64,000 bases of DNA from Nitrospirae bacterium GWF2_44_13 (GTDB lineage: Bacteria; Nitrospirota; Thermodesulfovibrionia; Thermodesulfovibrionales; UBA1546): assembly GCA_001805105.1 (NCBI GenBank), contig MHEE01000015.1, forward strand, positions 208,778 to 272,777, given 5' to 3'. Under the pieces are notes generated by a model. It was not told where the DNA came from, searched no databases, and saw nothing but the letters and a program-made list of their open reading frames with translations. Position numbers and translations under genes: made by a program. Position 1 is the stretch's first letter, and every line of letters begins with the position of its first letter. Shown here piece by piece: positions 25,152 through 63,105 of this stretch.

Positions 25152-27731
25152 ATGTCTGAATTGACCCCTGTAATGAAACAATACTCAAGCATCAAAGAGA
25201 AACATAAGGACTGCATCCTTATGTTTCGGCTCGGAGATTTCTATGAAATGTTCGGCGAGGACGCGAAAACAGCGTCAAGGATACTTCAGATCGCCCTTAC
25301 ATCAAGAGATAAATCCAAGGAAGAGCCTATGCCGATGTGCGGAATACCACACTTTGCCTCAGAAACATACATAACAAAGCTTATCAAGGCGGGTCACAAA
25401 GTCGCAATATGCGAGCAGATGGAAAACGCCAAAGAGGCAAAGGGTATTGTCCAGAGAGATGTGGTGAGGGTAATAACGCCCGGCACGCATACACCCGAAC
25501 GTCCGAAGGAAAACAACTACATTATTAGTTTTTTCCCCAGCGGCAAAAAACACGGCATCGCAGCAGCCGATGTATCCACAGGAGAATTTATTATTTATGA
25601 GACATTAGAGCCTGTCGAAGACGAATTCAGCAGGTTTGAACCTAAGGAGATTCTATATCCTGAAACCCTCAGGGGAAACATCCATTACTCGGAATCGCTA
25701 AAAGATTTTTACAGTACCGTTTACGAAGACTGGGCGTTTGACTACACAGAAGCCTATAAAACCCTCTTAATGCACTTTAAGGTGTCTTCTCTTGAAGGTT
25801 ACGGATGCGAGGGCATGCCTGCTGCAATATCCGCTGCCGGCGCGCTTATAAATTATCTTGAAAAGACACAGAAGGAAAATCTGAATTTCAGAAAGATTGC
25901 CACAATAAACCAGACATCTTTTATGTTCCTTGACGCTGCAACACAGAGAAATCTCGAATTAATCCACAATCTCAAAAGCAGGACAGAGGAAAATACACTT
26001 CTATGGGCGCTTGATGAGACACTGACGCCTATGGGGGGAAGATACCTAAGAGGATTAATCCTCAGGCCCTTCATAGACATAGATGAAATACGCAAAAGGC
26101 AGAATGCCGTAGAATACCTCGTTGAAGATTACGAACTCATTGAGACACTGCGCGGCAATCTCAGGAAACTTCAGGATATTGAAAGGCTGTCAAACAGGAT
26201 TGGGGCGAAGAGCGCAAATCCGAGAGACCTGACAGCAACAAAAAATTCCATAATGCATCTGCCCTTCATAAAAAAGGCGCTTATTTCTTCAAGAAATGCA
26301 TATCTAAAGTCAATGGCAGACGAAATATCCGAATTCTCTTCGCTGAAGTCATTGATAGAGTCGTCCATCATGGACACTCCTCCGCTGGGCGTTAGAGACG
26401 GAGGCATTATAAAGCACGGTTATAACAAAGAGATAGACAGCCTGAGGAAAATAGCAACAAGCGGAAAAGACTTTATTGCAGAGCTTGAGATGAGTGAAAA
26501 AAAGAAAACGGGGATTTCATCCCTTAAGGTCGGGTATAACAAGATATTCGGATATTACATTGAGGTTACAAATGCAAATCTTGACCAGGTTCCAGAACAC
26601 TACATAAGAAAGCAAACCCTCGTGGGCGGAGAAAGATTTATAACGCCCGAACTTAAAGAATATGAGTCAAAGGTCATCGGCGCTGAGGAAAAGCTGAAAA
26701 ACCTCGAGTATCAGGTCTTTAATGAAATCGTGAATGAGGCACAGAAAGAATCGCCGAGCCTTGTAAAAACAGCTCATTCCATCGCAGTTGCGGATTTTCT
26801 GACATCACTGGCAGTTGTGGCAAAAAGGCATAATTACGTAAAGCCGCGCATAGATGAGAGCGGCATAATTGAGATAACGGACGGAAGGCATCCCGTGCTT
26901 GAAAGGATTCCGGGAGAAGAGCGGTTTATTCCCAACAGCATTTATCTTGATAATGAAAAACAAAGGCTTATGATAATCACAGGCCCCAATATGGCGGGAA
27001 AATCCACATACATGAGGCAGATAGCCCTCACAGTCCTTATGGCGCAGATTGGAGGTTTTGTCCCTGCTGCGGAGGCAAGGATAGGGATAGTTGACAGGAT
27101 ATTCACAAGAATCGGGGCGTCTGATTATATAACAAAAGGGCAGAGCACATTCATGGTTGAGATGATAGAGACAGCCAACATACTCAACAATGCCACATCA
27201 AAAAGCCTCATAATCATAGACGAGGTCGGAAGGGGCACAAGCACATTTGACGGAATAAGCATTGCATGGGCTGTCGCTGAATATATAGCCAAAACAATAG
27301 CGGCAAGAACTCTCTTTGCCACACATTACAATGAGCTTACGGAACTCGCAATTACGCTTGAGGGCGTAAAAAACTACAATGTGTCTGTTAAGGAATGGGG
27401 AGATCAGATAATATTTCTCAGAAAGGTTGAAGAAGGCCCTGCCGACAAGAGCTATGGGATTCAGGTCGCGCAGCTTGCAGGGCTTCCGCAAGAGGTGATA
27501 GGAAGGGCAAAAGAAGTCCTTACAAACCTTGAGAAAGAGGAACTGGATGAGGCAGGAGAACCTAAATTCGCATCCCATAAACATAAAAAGAGAACTGTTC
27601 AGCTTGACCTCTTTGGAGCAAGAGAGGATTCCCTGCTGTCCGAGTTAATGAGCACGGATATGGAAGCGCTATCTCCGGAAGATGCATTAAACAAATTCAA
27701 AGAACTGAAGAAAAAGTGGATAAAATCCTGA
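25152..27731 (+). CDS. mutS: DNA mismatch repair protein MutS
   Basis: N-terminus TPVMKQY...FYEMFGEDA and Walker A GPNMAGKST, plus DEVGRGTST. I start at the ATG at 25152 rather than the track TTG at 25080. Confidence 0.93.
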   Translation: MSELTPVMKQYSSIKEKHKDCILMFRLGDFYEMFGEDAKTASRILQIALTSRDKSKEEPMPMCGIPHFASETYITKLIKAGHKVAICEQMENAKEAKGIVQRDVVRVITPGTHTPERPKENNYIISFFPSGKKHGIAAADVSTGEFIIYETLEPVEDEFSRFEPKEILYPETLRGNIHYSESLKDFYSTVYEDWAFDYTEAYKTLLMHFKVSSLEGYGCEGMPAAISAAGALINYLEKTQKENLNFRKIATINQTSFMFLDAATQRNLELIHNLKSRTEENTLLWALDETLTPMGGRYLRGLILRPFIDIDEIRKRQNAVEYLVEDYELIETLRGNLRKLQDIERLSNRIGAKSANPRDLTATKNSIMHLPFIKKALISSRNAYLKSMADEISEFSSLKSLIESSIMDTPPLGVRDGGIIKHGYNKEIDSLRKIATSGKDFIAELEMSEKKKTGISSLKVGYNKIFGYYIEVTNANLDQVPEHYIRKQTLVGGERFITPELKEYESKVIGAEEKLKNLEYQVFNEIVNEAQKESPSLVKTAHSIAVADFLTSLAVVAKRHNYVKPRIDESGIIEITDGRHPVLERIPGEERFIPNSIYLDNEKQRLMIITGPNMAGKSTYMRQIALTVLMAQIGGFVPAAEARIGIVDRIFTRIGASDYITKGQSTFMVEMIETANILNNATSKSLIIIDEVGRGTSTFDGISIAWAVAEYIAKTIAARTLFATHYNELTELAITLEGVKNYNVSVKEWGDQIIFLRKVEEGPADKSYGIQVAQLAGLPQEVIGRAKEVLTNLEKEELDEAGEPKFASHKHKKRTVQLDLFGAREDSLLSELMSTDMEALSPEDALNKFKELKKKWIKS

Positions 27732-32737: not shown

Positions 32738-34243
32738 ATGGCATACAGAGATCTCAGGAATTTTATAAATCTGCTTGAAAAAAGAGGGCTTTTGCACCGC
32801 ATAAAGGCAGAGGTTGACCCCTTGCTTGAGATATCCGAGATTACAGACAGGATGTCAAAGAGCCCTAACGGCGGAAAAGCATTGCTGTTTGAAAATGTAA
32901 AAGGCTCTTCTTTCCCTGTTGCCGCAAACCTCTTCGGCTCATTTGAAAGGATGTGCATAGCGCTTGAAGTAAGCAAGTTTGATGACGTAGCAAAGCGCAT
33001 AGAGGACTTGCTTAATCAAGCGCCTCCGAAAACATTTCTTGAAAAAATTGCAATGCTTCCGAAGCTGATTGAGCTTTCGCAATATCTTCCTAAATATGTT
33101 AAAAGCGCGCCATGTCAGGAGGTCATAGAAAAAGACAACCCCGACCTTTCAAAATTTCCAATAATAAAATGCTGGCCTCATGACGGGCAGGCAAATACAG
33201 CAATCAGCGGTCAGCAGTCAGCAATCAGCAATCCAGAGAACGAGGGGAGGTTCATTACGCTTCCGATGGTCTTTACAAAAGACCCTGAGACAGGAAGGCC
33301 CAACTGCGGGATGTACCGCATCCATATATACGATAAGAAAACAACGGGAATGCACTGGCATATACATAAGGACGGAGCACGGCATTATGAAAAATATAAA
33401 GAGCTTGGACAGAGAATGCCTGCCGCAATTGCCGTTGGAGGCGACCCTGCCGTAATCTATTCCGCAAGCGCGCCATTGCCTGAGGCTATAGACGAGATGC
33501 TCTTTGCCGGTTTTCTGAGAAAGGCTCCTGTAGAAATGGTGAAGTGCGTAACAAGTGATATTCAAGTCCCTGCCAACAGCGAGCTTGTCATAGAGGGTTA
33601 TCTTGAACCCGGAGAGATGCGCATCGAGGGGCCCTTCGGAGACCACACAGGTTTTTACTCTGCCGCAGAACCCTACCCTGTCTTTCATGTGACATGCATC
33701 ACGCACAGGAAAGACATGATATACCCTGCAACGCTTGTAGGTAAACCCCCGATGGAAGACTGCTATATGGGAAAGGCGACAGAGAGAATCTTTCTGCCCT
33801 TACTAAGGCTGGATTTCCCTGAGATAAAGGACATAAACCTTCCGATGGAAGGCGTATTCCATAACTTTGCTTTAATCTCGATAAAGAAAAGCTATCCGGG
33901 CCATGCAAAAAAGATAATACACGGGTTATGGGGAAAGGGACAGATGACGTTTGCCAAGCTGCTCATCGTTGTTGACGATGATGTTGACGTTCAGAACCTT
34001 TCATACACCGCGTGGAGAGTGCTTAACAATGTTGACTGGAAGAGAGATGTTGTGATTTCAGAAGGCCCACTTGATGCGCTTGACCATGCCGCAAACTGGC
34101 CGAAATACGGTGCAAAGATGGGCATAGATGCGACGAGGAAGATGCGTGAAGAGGGGATGATGCGTGACTGGCCCGAAGAGATTTACATGTCAGAGGAAAT
34201 AAAGCAACTCGTTGATAGAGGATGGAAAGAATACGGATTTTGA
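32738..34243 (+). CDS. UbiD-family (prenylated-FMN-dependent) decarboxylase
   Basis: MAYRDLRNFINLLEKRGLL...ITDR...FENVKGS N-terminus and a GPFGDHTGFYS motif. It carries an in-frame repeat-derived insertion at residues ~150-168. Confidence 0.88.
   Translation: MAYRDLRNFINLLEKRGLLHRIKAEVDPLLEISEITDRMSKSPNGGKALLFENVKGSSFPVAANLFGSFERMCIALEVSKFDDVAKRIEDLLNQAPPKTFLEKIAMLPKLIELSQYLPKYVKSAPCQEVIEKDNPDLSKFPIIKCWPHDGQANTAISGQQSAISNPENEGRFITLPMVFTKDPETGRPNCGMYRIHIYDKKTTGMHWHIHKDGARHYEKYKELGQRMPAAIAVGGDPAVIYSASAPLPEAIDEMLFAGFLRKAPVEMVKCVTSDIQVPANSELVIEGYLEPGEMRIEGPFGDHTGFYSAAEPYPVFHVTCITHRKDMIYPATLVGKPPMEDCYMGKATERIFLPLLRLDFPEIKDINLPMEGVFHNFALISIKKSYPGHAKKIIHGLWGKGQMTFAKLLIVVDDDVDVQNLSYTAWRVLNNVDWKRDVVISEGPLDALDHAANWPKYGAKMGIDATRKMREEGMMRDWPEEIYMSEEIKQLVDRGWKEYGF
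33198..33232 (+). repeat. Five tandem heptamers CAGCNNT (CAGCAAT CAGCGGT CAGCAGT CAGCAAT CAGCAAT) inside ubiD
   Basis: Read directly. A 19-nt string, CAGCAGTCAGCAATCAGCA, is shared with the thiE 5' end (reverse strand, 45901-45928). Confidence 0.9.
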
Positions 34244-34285
34244 TTTTAGCTTTTAGCTGATAGCTTTCAGCTGACAGCTTAAGAC
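34244..34285 (+). repeat. Six degenerate tandem heptamers NNNNAGC
   Basis: TTTTAGC TTTTAGC TGATAGC TTTCAGC TGACAGC TTAAGAC, starting right after the ubiD stop codon. Confidence 0.85.
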
Positions 34286-36863: not shown

Positions 36864-38306
36864 TCACCTTTGCCGTTTATACTCTTCTGCCTTCTTTATC
36901 ATCCCGCTTGTCCATTCAGGCGTTCCGAGTGCGTGGGTATGCGTATACGTTGCAAGGACATTCTTATAGCACAGGCCGTCCAGTTTATCTGTAATCCCCT
37001 CTCCCCTCTTCATCCCAAAGGCAAAAGAGATATTCCCTGCATTGAATTCTGAGGCTGCTTCAGGGTTAATGACGCGGGAATAATGGAACTCATGCCCTTT
37101 AAGCACAGCGCCCTCAGGATAAAAGGGATTGGCTTTCCGCACCTCTGCTATTGAATAACCGTGAGCCTGCGGCTTCTTCTCAAGAGAAAAAATGAACGGA
37201 AAAATTTCTGTCATTGGATATGTCCTGCCGTCTACGACAAGGGACTTGCCTAAATACATCAGCCCTCCGCACTCAGCATAGACAGAAAGCCCTTTTTCAA
37301 TGGCTTTCCTCAGAGAATCTCTGAAATCACTGTTTTCAGCAAGGGCTATCGCATGTGTCTCAGGAAACCCTCCGCCGATATAAAGCGCATCAATATCAGG
37401 AAGCGACTTTTCCTTTAATGCGCTTATCTCTATTATTTCCGCTCCCAGCGCCTTAAGCTCTTCAAAGTTTTCGGGATAATAAAACTGAAAAGCAGAATCC
37501 CTGATAACGCCAATTTTAAGTCCTGATGATGCATGATGCATGATGCATGATGCACGATTTCCTTCATCCTGTATCCTGCATCGTGTATCGTGTATCGTGT
37601 TGGTCATGGGCTCTGCCTCTTTTGCAATCTTTAAAATAGCATCAACATCAATATATTCCTCAGTTATCTCAAGCGCTTTATCAATTGCCTTCTGAGCCCC
37701 TATATGTTCCTGAAAAGGCACCAGCCCCATATGCCTCTCCGGAAAATTTTCTTCTCTCATTCTGGGAAACGCTCCAAGGACTGGAATCTTGCAGTATTTC
37801 TCTATAGAGTTCCTGATTATGAATTCATGCCTGCTTCCCGCGATATAGTTCAGGACAACGCCCTTTATTTCAACACCTGAATCAAACTTCTGAATGCCTG
37901 CTATTATTGCCGCAATCGTCCTTGTTGCCTTTGTGCAGTCAACAATAAGCAGGACAGGCGATTTAAGCATCTTTGCAAGCTCTGCTGTGCTGTGAGTGCC
38001 TTGCTCGTCCATCCCGTCATAAAATCCCCTATTGCCTTCTATCACGGCAATATCAGCAGTTTTCGCATGATTCATAAACGAAGGGATTATCCGCGATTCG
38101 CTGACTAAAAATGTATCAAGGTTATAGCACGGGGTTCCTGCTGCGGTTGAAAGCCATCCGCCGTCAATATAATCAGGGCCTTTTTTGAATGGGATAACTT
38201 TCATCCCTTTCTTCCTGAATGCTGCTATCAACCCAAGCGAAAGAGTTGTCTTGCCTGAGCCGCCCTTCAAACCTGCTACAATAATTCTCGGATATTTCAT
38301 TTTCAT
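36864..38306 (-). CDS. dsrN: Cobyrinate a,c-diamide synthase-like amidase (DsrN-type siroheme amidase by context)
   Basis: CbiA-type P-loop AGLKGGSGKTT and a C-terminal GATase domain (YAECGGLMYL). It lies downstream of dsrABD and contains a 26-codon repeat-derived linker insertion. Confidence 0.8.
   Translation of the reverse strand: MKMKYPRIIVAGLKGGSGKTTLSLGLIAAFRKKGMKVIPFKKGPDYIDGGWLSTAAGTPCYNLDTFLVSESRIIPSFMNHAKTADIAVIEGNRGFYDGMDEQGTHSTAELAKMLKSPVLLIVDCTKATRTIAAIIAGIQKFDSGVEIKGVVLNYIAGSRHEFIIRNSIEKYCKIPVLGAFPRMREENFPERHMGLVPFQEHIGAQKAIDKALEITEEYIDVDAILKIAKEAEPMTNTIHDTRCRIQDEGNRASCIMHHASSGLKIGVIRDSAFQFYYPENFEELKALGAEIIEISALKEKSLPDIDALYIGGGFPETHAIALAENSDFRDSLRKAIEKGLSVYAECGGLMYLGKSLVVDGRTYPMTEIFPFIFSLEKKPQAHGYSIAEVRKANPFYPEGAVLKGHEFHYSRVINPEAASEFNAGNISFAFGMKRGEGITDKLDGLCYKNVLATYTHTHALGTPEWTSGMIKKAEEYKRQR
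37527..37601. repeat. Two heptamer arrays inside dsrN: (TGATGCA)x4 and (TCSTGYA)x5
   Basis: Four perfect TGATGCA units occupy 37527-37554. The units TCCTGTA TCCTGCA TCGTGTA TCGTGTA TCGTGTT occupy 37567-37601. Confidence 0.9.
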
Positions 38307-45280: not shown

Positions 45281-45930
45281 TTCAATAACTCCAAAAACTT
45301 CGTTGTTTTTTCTTTAATATCTTTAGCCCCTAAAATTCCACTTATCAGCGCAATGCCATCAGCGCCTGCATCCATAACCTCTTTAATTCTATCCTGCTTT
45401 ATTCCCCCAATTGCAAAAACCGGAATTGAAATCTCAGCCTTTGCTTTTCTGTTAATATCAACTCCGAGAGGCTGGCCATATTTCATCTTTGACGGTGTTT
45501 TATAAACAGGACCGAGCGTTATAAAATCAGCGCCTTCCTTCTCTGCTTGCATTGCCTCTTCAATGCTGTGCGCTGATACCCCTATCATAAATTTATCTTT
45601 GGCGATTTTTCTTACAGCATGAGGAGGTATGCTATCCTGCCCGAGATGAACGCCATCAGCCTCAACAGACAGCGCAATATCAACCCTGTCATTAATGAAT
45701 AATTTCGCCCTGTATTTATCTGTTATTTCCCTCATTCTGTATGCCATATATAGCAATTCCCTTGTGCCTAAATCTTTTTCTCTTAACTGCACTGCTTTCA
45801 CGCCGCCTTTTAATGCCGCTTCAACAGCAGTGAATAGCGAACAGCTTTCAGCTATCAGCTTCCTGTCCGTTATTAAATATAATTTAAAGTCAACAGGCTG
45901 ACTGCTGATTGCTGACTGCTGATTGCTCAC
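45277..45930 (-). CDS. thiE: Thiamine-phosphate synthase; GTG start and first ~11 codons lie in a heptamer repeat
   Basis: LYLITD...VQLREK...HLGQDS...GPVY.T.SK core. The N-terminus MSNQQSAISSQ is encoded by (CAGCAAT/CAGCAGT) units. Confidence 0.88.
   Translation of the reverse strand: MSNQQSAISSQPVDFKLYLITDRKLIAESCSLFTAVEAALKGGVKAVQLREKDLGTRELLYMAYRMREITDKYRAKLFINDRVDIALSVEADGVHLGQDSIPPHAVRKIAKDKFMIGVSAHSIEEAMQAEKEGADFITLGPVYKTPSKMKYGQPLGVDINRKAKAEISIPVFAIGGIKQDRIKEVMDAGADGIALISGILGAKDIKEKTTKFLELLK
45901..45928 (-). repeat. Four tandem heptamers (CAGCAAT CAGCAGT)x2 on the minus strand
   Basis: Read directly. These are the same unit family as the ubiD insertion. Confidence 0.9.
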
Positions 45931-45932
45931 TT

Positions 45933-46703
45933 TTACAGCATCCCCTCTATCGGACTGCTCGCAGCGGCATAAAGTTTTTTAGGAATCCTCCCTGCCTTAT
46001 ACGCAAGCCTGCCTGCAATCACCGCATGTTTCATAGCGCTTGCCATCGCAATCGGATCTTTTGCCCCTGCAATCGCAGTGTTAAGAAGCACCGCATCGCA
46101 GCCTAATTCCATCGCAACAGCAACGTCAGACGCAGTTCCTACACCAGCGTCCACGATAACAGGAGCTTTCACTGTCTCTAAAATAATCTTGATATTGTAT
46201 GGATTCCTTATTCCAAGTCCGGAGCCTATCGGAGCAGCCAACGGCATCACAGCAACAGCGCCTGCATCAATCAGCCTTTTCGCCATTATTGGATCATCAT
46301 TGGTGTATGGGAATACAAGGAAGCCTTCCTTTGCGAGAATCTCAGTAGCTTTGAGCAGGCCGATAACATCAGGGAAAAGTGTCTTTTCGTCTCCTATTAC
46401 CTCAAGCTTAATCATATCCGAAATACCTGCCTCTCTTGCAAGCCTTGAATATCTGAGGGCATCCTCAACATTGTAACAGCCGGCAGTATTCGGAAGAATC
46501 TTGTATTTCCTGGGGTTAATATAGTCAAACAGGTTTTCGGATTTCCTGTCTATGATATTCACCCTTCTTACAGCAACAGTGACAACATCAGCGCCTGATG
46601 CCTCAATAGCCTTCTTCGTCTCCTCAAAGTCCTTATACTTTCCTGTCCCCACCCAGAGACGGGATTTGAATTCTATCCCTTTGATTATCAACTTATCTTC
46701 CAT
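45933..46703 (-). CDS. thiG: Thiazole synthase
   Basis: [10 protein letters not shown]...LPNTAGC...KLEVIGD...[10 protein letters not shown] motifs. Confidence 0.94.
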
Positions 46704-59916: not shown

Positions 59917-62900
59917 TCACTTGCCCGTCTTCCCTATCGGAAAAGCCTGTCCGCTTATCGATATTGTCGGATACTGCGCCTTCTTAAAAACTCTTTCCGC
60001 AAGAACAGGCACTTCACTATCAACATAATCAGCAAGCTCTGTAGTCTTAACATATCCTGTCTTTCCCTTATCAGCCTTCCCCTTTAATCCTTCAACAAGC
60101 ACATAAGTGAACAGGCCATGCCCCTGATAACCTTCAACAGCCTCCTGCAAAGATGTTGAAGCTGAAAGGATGGTTGAGCCCACAGCCCTGCTTAATATCT
60201 TCATTGCAGTGTCTTCGCTCATTCCCCTTGTAAGCATCGCCACCTGTATTGCCTCTCCCAAAGCGCCTGCGCTGCATGTGTCAATAATAATCAGTTTCTT
60301 TGTTACCGGGATATTGGCTATAAGCTCTTTAAGCATTCCCTGCGGCAATGCATCTGTCTTTAGTTTTTCTGTTCTTGTTGAGCCGACATTTGAGGTAATA
60401 AGAAAATACTCTCCGTTATCAACTGTTCCGTGACTTGCAACAAAAAAGACAAATACATCGTCAGGGTTCAATGATTTATAGGCTTTAAGCTCTTTTATGA
60501 TGCTTTCATTTGTCGTCTTTTCTTTTGTAACGAGTTTTTTAATATTTACTTTTTCAAAAAGCCCTGCTGTAACTTTTTTAAGAGTATCTTCAAAAAGTTC
60601 TGCGTCTGAAACCGCATACTTGAGTTGCAGCTTCGGGTTTTTATATTCGTTGATACCTACTATAATGGCATTTAAAGACGGCTTTGTCAGGGATTTGAAT
60701 GTGGCGGTTATCTCATAAAGCACATCATTGCTCTGCATTGTATTTTCACCGTTAAAGGCGATTGCACGGATAGTGTTCAAGCCGTTTGAGAGTTTAAGAT
60801 TATATACCTTATAAACTGCCTTATAAACTGCCTTGTCGTCCTTAGGGATTATCTTTACTCCCCTTGCGCTGTCAAGGACTACAGCAGAGCCGTTGAGATA
60901 GAGCCTTATGTCTCCTATGCCTCCGCCAATGTCAGTTATCTTAAGGGTTATCGCTGCTACGTTCTTATCCGTGCTTTTCGGTGTATCAACAAGCGTTACA
61001 ACCGGCGGCTGCTTAACATCAGCCAATGTCTTAAAGTCTTTTAAAGAGCCGCCTGATAGGGCAAGTTTCACAAGGTCAGGACGATAAAATGCTTCGCGGT
61101 AATTTTCAATGCCATAGACGTTATTGCCGATTCTTACATTCAGGTGCTTGTCGCCATTGGCAGATGAGTTGTAATAGCCCTCAGGAGTAATCACTATCCA
61201 TTCGCCATCGGTGAAGCTGATAAATTGGGCAAGTTCTTTGCCTGTATTTATATCCCAGATTCTCGTTGTGCCATCAGCACTTCCTGAGAATGCATATCTG
61301 CTATCAGGGGAAAAGGCGATGGAAGTAACATATCTTGTATGTCCTAAAAAAGTTCTTATCTTTTTTTCAGTTGATATATCCCAGAGTCTTAGAGGATGAT
61401 AATTTTCGTCCCCTGACAATGCATAGTTACCGTCAGGAGAAAAAGCTAATGACTTAAGCCAACCATATGAGAACTCAGGAAATTTTCTTATCTCCTTTCC
61501 TGTTAATATATCCCATATCGTTATCGTTCCATCCACACTCCCCGACAAAACATACCTGCCATCAGGGGAAAAAGATGCGGAGAACCCCCTAGTTAAAAAT
61601 GTCCTTATTTCTTGCCCTGTTGATATATCCCAGAGTTTAATGCCTTTAGAATCACCCGACAATGCATATTTCCCGTCAGGGGAAAAGGCAACCGAGGTTA
61701 CACCACCAATAAGGTTTGTATGCCCTGTGAATGTCCTTATCTCTTTGCTTGTTTCCGCATCCCAGAGTTTGAGGGTGGCATCCAAATGTCCTGACAATAC
61801 ATATTTCCCATCGGGAGAAAAGGCTGCGGAATTAACCATGCTTTTATGCCCTGTAAATTGTTTTATCTCTTTGCCTGTTTCTATGTCCCAGAGTTTGAAG
61901 GTCACATCCTGACTTCCTGACAACACATATTTGCCGTCAGGGGAAAGAGCTATAGAGCTAATCCAGCTGCTATGCCCTGTAAAAACCTTTGTTTTTTTGC
62001 CTGTTGAAATATCCCAAAGCCTAAGGATGCCATCCTCGCCCCCTGCATACACGCCATTAGGAGAAAAAGCTACAGAGGAAACCTTAATTGAATGCCCTGA
62101 AAATGTCCTTATCTCTTTACCTGTTGCAACTTCCCAAAGTATAAGGGTCTTATCTTCACTTCCTGACAATGCATATCTGCCATCAGGGGAAAAGGCAACA
62201 GAGCTAACACTAGCTGTATGTCCCTTAAATGTCCTTATCTCTTTACCTGTTGCAACTTCCCAAAGTATAAGCTCCCAACTTCCAGACAATGCATATTTAC
62301 CATCAGGGGAAAAAACAACAGAATCAACTCCACCGATTACTCGCTCCATAGCAAATTGCCTTATTTCTTTTCCTGTAGAAATATCCCAGAGCTTAAGAGT
62401 GTCACCACCTCCACCTGACAATGCGTATCTGCCGTCAGGGGAAAAAGAGACTGAGTAAACATATTTTGTACCTTCTTCAAATGTCTTTACTTCTTTACCT
62501 GTAGCTACATCCCAGAGCTTGAGGGTTTTATCGCTGCTTCCTGACAATACATATCTGCCATTAGGGGAAAAAGCTACTGAGCTAACTTTATCTGTATGAC
62601 CTGAAAAAGTTCGTATCTCCTTGCCTGTTTCTACTTCCCAGAGTTTGAGGGTATGGTCATCATCAACCCCACCACCTGCCCCTGACAATGCATATTTCCC
62701 ATCAGGAGAAAACGCAACGGAGGCAATCCAACTTCTATGCCCTGTAAATGTCCTTATTTCTTTGCCCGAAGCAATATCCCACAGTTTGAGGGCTTTGTCC
62801 CAACCCCCAGACAATGCATATCTGCCGTCAGGGGAAAAGGCAACAGAGCTAACTTTATCTGTATGGCCTGAAAAAGTCCTTATCTCTTTTCCAGTTGCAA

Positions 62901-63105
62901 CCTCCCAAAACTTGAGGGTTTTGTCGTAACTCCCTGACGACAGTGCAAATCTGCCATCGGGGGAGAAAACAACGGAATTAACAGTCCCCGAATGCCCCAT
63001 CTGCACAAAAATCTCCGGTTTCTCCGCGGCAGCGCTTGATTTTGAGAAAAGCACAAGCAGAAAAAGACTTATAAATACTTTCTTTGCAAGAGAGGTTCTA
63101 TACAT
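59917..63105 (-). CDS. Secreted 14xWD40-repeat protein with a C-terminal caspase-like (peptidase C14) domain
   Basis: Signal peptide MYRTSLAKKVFISLFLLVLFSKSSAAA. There are fourteen GH...WD/WE units, some near-identical. The C-terminal domain has SHG and DTCSAG (His/Cys dyad). I start at the ATG at 63105 with GGAGG upstream. Confidence 0.85.
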   Translation of the reverse strand: MYRTSLAKKVFISLFLLVLFSKSSAAAEKPEIFVQMGHSGTVNSVVFSPDGRFALSSGSYDKTLKFWEVATGKEIRTFSGHTDKVSSVAFSPDGRYALSGGWDKALKLWDIASGKEIRTFTGHRSWIASVAFSPDGKYALSGAGGGVDDDHTLKLWEVETGKEIRTFSGHTDKVSSVAFSPNGRYVLSGSSDKTLKLWDVATGKEVKTFEEGTKYVYSVSFSPDGRYALSGGGGDTLKLWDISTGKEIRQFAMERVIGGVDSVVFSPDGKYALSGSWELILWEVATGKEIRTFKGHTASVSSVAFSPDGRYALSGSEDKTLILWEVATGKEIRTFSGHSIKVSSVAFSPNGVYAGGEDGILRLWDISTGKKTKVFTGHSSWISSIALSPDGKYVLSGSQDVTFKLWDIETGKEIKQFTGHKSMVNSAAFSPDGKYVLSGHLDATLKLWDAETSKEIRTFTGHTNLIGGVTSVAFSPDGKYALSGDSKGIKLWDISTGQEIRTFLTRGFSASFSPDGRYVLSGSVDGTITIWDILTGKEIRKFPEFSYGWLKSLAFSPDGNYALSGDENYHPLRLWDISTEKKIRTFLGHTRYVTSIAFSPDSRYAFSGSADGTTRIWDINTGKELAQFISFTDGEWIVITPEGYYNSSANGDKHLNVRIGNNVYGIENYREAFYRPDLVKLALSGGSLKDFKTLADVKQPPVVTLVDTPKSTDKNVAAITLKITDIGGGIGDIRLYLNGSAVVLDSARGVKIIPKDDKAVYKAVYKVYNLKLSNGLNTIRAIAFNGENTMQSNDVLYEITATFKSLTKPSLNAIIVGINEYKNPKLQLKYAVSDAELFEDTLKKVTAGLFEKVNIKKLVTKEKTTNESIIKELKAYKSLNPDDVFVFFVASHGTVDNGEYFLITSNVGSTRTEKLKTDALPQGMLKELIANIPVTKKLIIIDTCSAGALGEAIQVAMLTRGMSEDTAMKILSRAVGSTILSASTSLQEAVEGYQGHGLFTYVLVEGLKGKADKGKTGYVKTTELADYVDSEVPVLAERVFKKAQYPTISISGQAFPIGKTGK

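Follow-up and report, generated by a model that had tools for sequence, protein, structure and literature searches.

How does a conserved biosynthetic enzyme come to carry a tandem array of 7-nt units within its coding sequence? We address this question for a ubiD-family decarboxylase gene of Nitrospirae bacterium GWF2_44_13, located on contig MHEE01000015.1 (GenBank assembly GCA_001805105.1); the stretch analysed, positions 208,778 to 272,777 of the forward strand, is 64,000 nt long and is referred to below as the window (feature coordinates in Table 1). An earlier interpretation made from the letters alone (the sequence-only reading) held that a repeat shared with the start of thiE had entered this gene without loss of frame, and it was essentially right. 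We conclude that the array is probably a tolerated, translated microsatellite in the enzyme's one permissive turn. Slippage and exchange with sister arrays would account for its turnover, and it would have no function of its own.

The array begins 456 nt into the gene and consists of the units CAGCAAT, CAGCGGT, CAGCAGT, CAGCAAT and CAGCAAT (33198-33232), so that three unit variants occur among five copies and the repeat is imperfect. Tandem Repeats Finder, which extends the call by one base, reports period 7, 5.1 copies, 86% matches and the consensus CAGCAAT, in agreement with the five tandem heptamers described before. The translation across the array reads ...DGQANTAISGQQSAISNPENEGRFITLP..., with DGQANTAISGQQSAISNPENEGR as the peptide stretch over the repeat tract. 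Compared with the closest relatives (487 aa, loop ...DGQAEDEGRF...), the gene carries an in-frame insert of 14 codons encoding residues 153-166, N-T-A-I-S-G-Q-Q-S-A-I-S-N-P, the gap position being ambiguous by a few bases; the excess over the canonical outgroup motif, DG-GRF, is 19 residues. These two values replace the previous estimate of about 17 added residues. The 42 nt of the insert equal six heptamer-lengths, and the reading frame is therefore kept. The insert occupies the turn that joins W-P-x-D-G to G-R-F-I-T-L-P in the domain that binds prenylated flavin mononucleotide, and the insert-free motif that the sequence-only reading had given, W-P-x-D-G-G-(P/R)-F-I-T-L-P, is present as W-P-x-D-G-G-(R/K)-F-I-T-L-P in outgroups and in Thermodesulfovibrio-type sequences.

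The host is an intact gene of the UbiD family, as had been recognised: the 501-aa protein contains the Pfam domains UbiD_N (PF20695), UbiD (PF01977) and UbiD_C (PF20696) and matches the NCBIfam equivalog model TIGR03701, "menaquinone biosynthesis decarboxylase", with 639.7 bits against a cut-off of 495.9, the HMMER match being broken into two stretches at the insert. The Escherichia coli-type UbiD model NF008175 is not reached (416 against a cut-off of 788). By these profile matches the protein is a menaquinone biosynthesis decarboxylase of the SCO4490/futalosine-pathway type. Purifying selection on the gene is strong, with a ratio of nonsynonymous to synonymous substitution rates (dN/dS) of 0.05-0.09 against eight relatives. 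An AlphaFold model computed from an alignment of 41 sequences (A1) has a mean predicted local distance difference test score (pLDDT) of 81.6, and Foldseek matches it to the E. coli UbiD entries 5m1d and 2idb (E = 7e-55, template modelling score 0.77-0.88). Values of pLDDT below 50 are limited to residues 153-165, residues 447-454 and the C-terminus, and the insert, in which Ser, Gln and Ala are abundant as the sequence-only reading had described, is predicted to be a disordered excursion on an otherwise normal UbiD fold. Residues N189, R194, H208, H210, E253, E297 and D302, putative equivalents of the catalytic residues of Fdc1 and UbiD, are invariant in alignment A1. The insert belongs to the cofactor-binding domain, about 23-36 residues upstream of the N189-x-G-x-Y-R194 motif, which is likewise invariant.

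The predicted RNA fold of the array has a minimum free energy of -11.3 kcal/mol and shows no hairpin beyond shuffled sequences (z = -0.21), which sets it apart from the two-armed elements of this genome and from the strongly folding arrays at thiE and just past the ubiD stop. No convincing terminal inverted repeats, target-site duplication or conserved element ends were seen.

One hypervariable loop among the orthologues

We compared the loop in 120 database homologues and 80 genomic loci; the alignment of orthologues comprises 194 sequences. Three states can be distinguished. The canonical D-G-G-R-F is found in Firmicutes, other outgroups and the Thermodesulfovibrio-type sequences; a five-residue expansion, D-G-Q-P-x-D-E-G-R-F, is found in 131 of the 194 sequences; and about 40 have an additional 5-43 residues inserted there, with lengths that cluster at 13-15 residues. 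No second recurrent internal indel site exists in this alignment, in which the loop stands alone, and no equal-length loop was seen in unrelated lineages among the homologues compared. On a FastTree tree built without the loop columns, insert-bearing and insert-free alleles are intermixed: the best tree requires 28 changes of state, and its well-supported branches provide 12 independent insert/no-insert contrasts.

The content of the loop changes as readily as its presence. Within a single cluster of 90% identity there are eight unrelated loop sequences, namely TSAVSYQLSAISS, TTEQRAESTEHRA, TAISNQQSAVSNS, TSRVKSQKSEVRSL, ATEVRSS, TTEVRSQRSEVRSS, IGGDCPEFTDEVKRSRRIGTVPAA and a 40-residue composite. 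At the DNA level, the heptamer units found in loop inserts are CAGCAAT/CAGCAGT, CAGCTAT, CAGAAGT and CAGAGCR (ACAGAGC). Loci L043, L011 and L020, of another sublineage, have octamer arrays GGAGACAC / CGGAGAAA in the loop, which give rise to 8-residue periodic peptides (GDTETRRH). A palindromic element of 50-85 nt, bounded by GGGGACTGTCCC...GGGACTGTCCCC, contributes the in-frame peptide GDCPEFTDE..RIGTVPA to the loops of L084, L085 and L087; in one case it is nested beside a heptamer array and has a nested hairpin of its own (L084, L085; hairpin in L085). This element belongs to a dispersed family with one copy in the present genome and up to 15 in relatives (G005).

A frameshift at the tract was seen in 0 of 80 genomic loci and in 0 of about 200 proteins. 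Split genes in the P0002 cluster were considered as frameshift alleles and rejected, since L087 is intact at the tract, its short protein being an annotation choice, and the N run in L088 is a scaffold gap. Gene calls in public metagenome-assembled genomes (MAGs) are often truncated or split at the repeat-bearing loop (P0135-P0143, L087, L088); in the cases seen this came from contig ends, from an N-gap or from a 325-aa call whose first residues are MVFTKDPETG. These truncated calls are database artefacts caused by the repeats.

The insert is lineage-specific, as had been supposed. Its nearest relatives without it (L002, L003, L004 and L006) share 92-94% amino acid and 91-93% DNA identity with the gene of the window and have the loop QAEDEG. 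The array is present in the window and in L001 and absent from these four loci, which are intermediate in similarity between the window/L001 pair and L085, a locus of 89% DNA identity that carries a CAGCTAT array together with the palindromic element. The Glu of the insert-free Q-A-E-D-E-G matches the E of the ...P-E-N-E-G junction and not the T or G usual for insert-free alleles. From these sequence relationships, the simplest reading would be that the array predates the subgroup, that its unit was rewritten, and that it was then cleanly deleted in the L002-L006 branch. With regard to import of the array by recombination, sliding identity gave weak hints and the flanks held no clear tract; the 27 nt that follow the insert differ at nine positions between the window and L002, in a segment rich in four-fold and six-fold degenerate codons (p ~0.02, an estimate).

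The residue that precedes E-G at the right junction is coupled to the state of the loop. Of 41 alleles with an insert, 33 have Asn at this position, and of 137 without one, 130 have Asp; in the 12 supported independent contrasts, eight or nine point in this direction and none in the opposite one (sign test p ~0.004), and within the window's subgroup an actual Asp/Asn change goes with insert gain or loss. Recurrence of the Asp-to-Asn change in independent contrasts suggests either shared junction ancestry or structural compensation. An old junction (..GAA AAY GAR GG) may have been shared by most insert-bearing alleles while their interiors were rewritten; it is also possible that Asn is favoured by a long loop and Asp by a tight turn.

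Heptamer arrays across the genome and the class

The ubiD tract is one of a large population. This genome contains 93 tandem arrays of period 7, compared with 0-14 for each of periods 5, 6 and 8-12 (14 for period 8), and the 93 comprise 44 unit classes that group into a few families. When an array is counted as deep if it lies at least 50 codons inside an open frame of at least 150 codons, 61 of the 93 are deep, 24 fall within the leader or codons 1-50, two lie in the last 20 codons and six are in no long frame. Because open frames of this length cover about 88% of the genome, the placement of the arrays roughly mirrors that of the DNA, apart from a surplus near the starts of genes. Twenty-five loci have at least three CAGC-phase units, and about 15 of these are within long frames, where they encode Q-x-S-A-x-S-x heptads; reversed-pattern controls for CAGC-type arrays gave 0 matches. 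The sequence-only reading had described a repeat of non-coding type colonising an open reading frame (ORF): the in-frame part of this description stands, and the "non-coding type" does not, given how many arrays lie deep in open frames and would be translated.

The same unit family recurs at the start of thiE, as the sequence-only reading had stated, and the 19-mer CAGCAGTCAGCAATCAGCA that was said to be identical in both places is indeed shared, at 33212-33230 (+) and 45903-45921 (-), with no match in 100 shuffles. A third locus, C10:6065, has 18 bases of this 19-mer in common. With that locus and about 25 CAGC-phase loci in the genome, the identity marks membership of one dispersed CAGCNNT family and, judging from the sequences, need not imply direct copying between the two genes. 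A heptamer array cycles through three codon phases and is thus translatable only on a strand without a stop in any of them; CAGCAAT is open in all phases and its complement contains TGA, which fixes the orientation of the arrays at ubiD and thiE.

In five related genomes we compared the number of (CAGCART)3 and (CAGAGCR)3 matches with the unit in the UbiD loop. These numbers are 104 and 1 in G005 (loop unit CAGCAGT), 35 and 0 in G001 (CAGCART), 10 and 4 in G004 (CAGCAAT/CAGCAGT), 6 and 0 in G002 (loop without insert) and 3 and 10 in G006 (ACAGAGC). The loop unit thus tends to belong to the family abundant in the same genome, a tendency that is anecdotal at five genomes and would fit exchange among the arrays of one genome. 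Together with the use of CAG-type heptamers and one octamer alone in the loop, it suggests that turnover is not purely local. Of 151 genomes sampled from the class, 58 contain (CAGCART)3 arrays, and none of 11 genomes of the genus coded g7 does; as a separate observation, Thermodesulfovibrio-type UbiD sequences have the loop in its unexpanded D-G-G form. Abundant heptamer arrays coexist with mismatch repair in this genome: MutS (885-aa frame, in the window) and MutL (604-aa frame, on contig C6) are both present and intact, and loss of mismatch repair is therefore ruled out as the cause of the arrays.

Explanations for the in-frame tract

The explanation that we consider probable, a microsatellite tolerated in a single permissive turn, would operate as follows. 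Six unit-lengths of CAGCNNT would be read as a 14-residue, disordered, Ser/Gln/Ala-rich excursion, the tract being one member of a population of period-7 arrays that extends over the genome and the lineage and is placed roughly by coding density. Arrays would persist if their summed length is compatible with the frame, if no phase of the sense strand contains a stop and if the protein tolerates a floppy loop. The decarboxylase would offer a single loop that qualifies, and this would have become a long-lived hypervariable site whose arrays may be expanded, rewritten to other CAG-type units, invaded by small repeats or deleted, with the remainder of the protein under strong purifying selection throughout. 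On this view, the tract would be translated and harmless and would turn over through replication slippage and exchange among arrays of the same genome, and we infer that it has no function of its own.

Several observations weigh against this explanation. Some 40 inserts in a single loop, all of CAG type, are more specific than a model in which arrays land anywhere and are filtered by tolerance; only CAG-type heptamers and one octamer are used at this site, and CAG-type arrays make up about 13 of the 93 in the genome. The host codons CAG CCN and ACA GAT contain CAGC and CAGA and may have seeded CAG-type arrays here. The recurrent switch from Asp to Asn beside the insert suggests that the loop is not wholly neutral. 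The window and L001 show no differences in the 42 nt of the insert at a synonymous divergence (dS) of 0.17, but the difference-free stretch extends over 180 nt (p ~0.04 after correction, an estimate), so the identity with L001 is not specific to the array.

An active, self-propagating element, whose arrays would spread from locus to locus by a dedicated or homology-dependent mechanism (ectopic gene conversion, template switching or some enzyme) and for which the UbiD loop would be a preferred target and not just a tolerant site, seems to us rather unlikely. It would account for the single recurrent insertion site within 500 aa, for the presence there of CAG-type units alone although these are a minority in the genome, for the agreement between the UbiD unit family and the family abundant in the same genome, for the identical 19-mer in ubiD and thiE, for relatives that hold arrays of one family at dozens of loci, and for the thiE hairpin arms, which in G002 are exchanged jointly for another complementary pair; CAG CCN and ACA GAT host codons would supply its CAGC or CAGA seed. 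The array, however, showed no transposase-like signature, target-site duplication or conserved ends, and the UbiD copy forms no hairpin. Single-base steps lead from CAGAAGT through CAGCAGT and CAGCAAT to CAGCTAT, so that local mutation and slippage could suffice, the common right junction (..GAA AAY GAR GG) fits descent from a few old insertions, and the genome comparison comprises only five genomes. It is a doubtful, if conceivable, proposition that Nitrospirota of the class Thermodesulfovibrionia possess an undescribed, self-renewing translated microsatellite, in which a process guided by homology or driven by an enzyme would exchange families of 7- and 8-nt arrays among the loci of one genome, cassette-like sites at a few permissive loops would have their content swapped faster than the host protein accumulates 10% substitutions, and the flanking Asp/Asn would co-adapt.

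Recruitment of the excursion for active-site gating, for contact with a partner (prenyltransferase or membrane) or for tuning of oligomerisation is improbable, since sequence, unit and length all differ among proteins of at least 90% identity, the nearest relatives lack the insert, the loop is predicted to be disordered and an in-frame palindromic element serves equally at the same place; its position before the N189-x-G-x-Y-R194 motif, the concentration of lengths at 13-15 residues, the coupled Asp/Asn change and the identity of the tract in the window and L001 would be in keeping with such a role. A unit that is not a multiple of three within a coding sequence also brings to mind a contingency (phase-variation) switch, in which gain or loss of one 7-nt unit would shift the frame and toggle menaquinone synthesis. 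We regard this as very improbable: no frameshift was seen at the tract in the loci and proteins examined, the apparent split genes of one cluster reduce to a scaffold gap and an annotation call, the imperfection of the units damps slippage, and the gene is a housekeeping respiratory gene concerned with neither the cell surface nor virulence. We give next to no credence to a mis-join, binning error or chimeric read product. Repeats of this kind do break the assemblies of relatives, in which contigs end or an N-gap occurs at exactly this point, but the same 42 nt are found in the independent MAG L001 and the exact 501-aa protein is recorded on seven contigs from several sources, which shows that the tract is not an assembly artefact; in addition, the reading frame is unbroken and the flanking DNA aligns colinearly with that of relatives.

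Known repeat systems and other arrays in the window

The Rickettsia palindromic elements (RPEs) are repeat DNA that lies in frame within housekeeping genes (Ogata et al., 2000, 2002, as recounted in PMC10969869). As described there, they resemble the UbiD tract in being short repeated DNA, dispersed in many copies, that sits in frame in housekeeping genes unrelated to one another and is read as additional surface peptide, apparently without conflict with the fold of the host protein. They differ in being palindromes of about 100-150 bp with a conserved peptide, in ten families, whereas the UbiD tract consists of 42 nt of 7-nt units with neither palindrome nor conserved peptide. Unlike the RPEs of that account, the UbiD tract turns over within one site, where some relatives hold a true palindromic element. 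We rejected its assignment as an RPE or as an in-frame miniature inverted-repeat transposable element: it is in frame, but neither a hairpin nor terminal inverted repeats nor a duplicated target site was seen.

Among the long microsatellites of bacteria, heptamer repeats show the strongest over-representation; their origin is unexplained, and they have been described as intergenic. Published examples include TAACTGA in Beggiatoaceae, Cyanobacteria and Bacteroidetes (PMC4679880) and GGGAATC and GGGGA(T/C)T in Xanthomonas and Nostoc (PMC4692102), the latter source stating that no detailed literature on heptameric repeats exists. Both papers cite the survey of long simple sequence repeats (LSSRs) by Mrazek (2007). 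Taken as a heptanucleotide LSSR, a tract should have at least three head-to-tail 7-nt copies and a period over-represented against other periods and against chance; the ubiD tract agrees with this, with 5.1 copies and 93 arrays of period 7 in the genome. The local arrays share with bacterial heptamer simple sequence repeats, including the cyanobacterial short tandemly repeated repetitive (STRR) sequences, an organisation of two to six copies of period 7 at many loci, a patchy phylogeny and an unexplained origin; in those repeats, length changes between strains occur in 7-nt steps. Read on the reverse strand, the local units (TTGCTGA, CTGCTGA, TAGCTGA) have the CTGA core of TAACTGA, and the SAVSYQL loops found here resemble the LSVISYQ-type heptads encoded by TAACTGA in reverse orientation (MacGregor). 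The differences concern location and diversity. The intergenic share of the Xanthomonas repeats is 89-93% (PMC4692102), 22 of 24 mapped sets of Microcystis heptamer repeats are intergenic, and TAACTGA repeats are mostly just upstream of start codons in BOGUAY (PMC4679880), whereas in the present genome two thirds of the arrays are in frame and deep within genes, 44 unit classes exist side by side and one protein loop has been rewritten repeatedly. The ubiD tract was accordingly rejected as an intergenic repeat of the TAACTGA or STRR type (CCCCAAT / TTGGTCA / CAACAGT), from which its units and its position far inside a gene differ; of the ubiD and thiE arrays, the thiE copy alone is at a start codon. 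A single CCCCAAT array occurs elsewhere in this genome. A literature search on heptamer (7-bp) repeats returned nothing relevant for Nitrospirae, Nitrospirota or Thermodesulfovibrio.

Coding-region contingency repeats are exemplified by the CTCTT pentamers of Neisseria opa genes and the tetranucleotide and heptanucleotide tracts of Haemophilus, a heptamer example being documented (PMC8262952; PMC12721329). They are similar to the ubiD tract in having a unit that is not a multiple of three within, or at the start of, a coding sequence. Contingency tracts are long and perfect, belong to surface or virulence genes and switch at high rate, whereas the ubiD tract is short, imperfect and part of a conserved enzyme of respiratory biosynthesis.

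The UbiD case is a combination of tandem heptamer arrays with in-frame translated repeat DNA. What is new at this locus is the behaviour of the UbiD loop as a hot spot, the Asp/Asn coupling and the correspondence between the unit family in the loop and the family abundant in the same genome. Over a natural radiation, the loop has registered numerous gains, losses and rewrites, and it constitutes a natural experiment on the birth and exchange of repeat DNA, on the unstructured load that an enzyme turn bears and on the adaptation of flanking residues. In practical terms, such tracts split profile matches, break assemblies at the site and truncate public MAG gene calls.

Table 1. Positions of the ubiD tract and of other features, in window coordinates unless a contig is named
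Feature	Position	Strand	Basis
ubiD-family gene, intact, 501 aa	32738..34243	+	ORF, Pfam, TIGR03701, fold match, dN/dS
Heptamer tandem array, 5.1 copies	33198..33233	+	Tandem Repeats Finder, sequence
42-nt in-frame insert, codons 153-166	33194..33235	+	Codon alignment against insert-free L002, L003, L004, L006
Right junction E-N-E-G (GAG AAC GAG GGG)	33236..33247	+	Alignment, residue coupling
Sister array CAGCAAT/CAGCAGT x5, at thiG stop / thiE GTG start	45897..45931	-	Tandem Repeats Finder, 19-mer
Complementary arm AGCTGAT AGCTGAA AGCTG, inside thiE	45842..45860	-	Fold
Array TAGCTTTCAGCTGA x2.4, CAGCT superfamily	34244..34280	+	Tandem Repeats Finder, sequence
480-aa ORF with two in-frame heptamer arrays	36864-38306, arrays 37526-37600	-	Sequence
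Location noted for mutS (intact, 885-aa frame)	26970-27533 (G000:C15:235747-236310)		Within window
Palindromic element, single copy in this genome	G000:C14:99943-100002

The other arrays of the window show further relations between repeats and genes. At thiE, the sister array would encode S-N-Q-Q-S-A-I-S-S-Q before the ThiE profile, TIGR00693 starting at residue 16 of the ORF. The inner arm pairs with the 5' array to form a predicted hairpin around the thiE start of -35.4 kcal/mol (z = -5.8; 0 of 200 shuffles as good), and the conserved N-terminus VDFKLYLITDR is encoded in the loop of this two-armed structure (45835-45935, minus strand). In G002 (L105), both arms are swapped together for a complementary pair, GAAGTCA upstream and ACTTCTC inside thiE; the inner arm is missing in G005, and the array is absent in G004. 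The arms thus look as though they covary across genomes.

The CAGCT-superfamily array begins at the first base past the ubiD stop and folds into a hairpin of -19.4 kcal/mol (z = -4.1) that is followed by no T-run. The 480-aa ORF on the minus strand, which looks from its sequence like a cobyrinic acid a,c-diamide synthase, carries a composite of GATGCAT-type and CAGGATA / CACGATA-type arrays that gives ...TNTIHDTRCRIQDEGNRASCIMHHASSG...; a search of five related genomes with this composite of about 73 nt returned 10 to 41 matches each in G001-G004 and a gene-length match only in G005. Towards the end of the window (61719-62964), three overlapping tandem-repeat calls share a period of 126 nt (42 codons) with 71-75% matches, and this region may hold a repeat protein gene.

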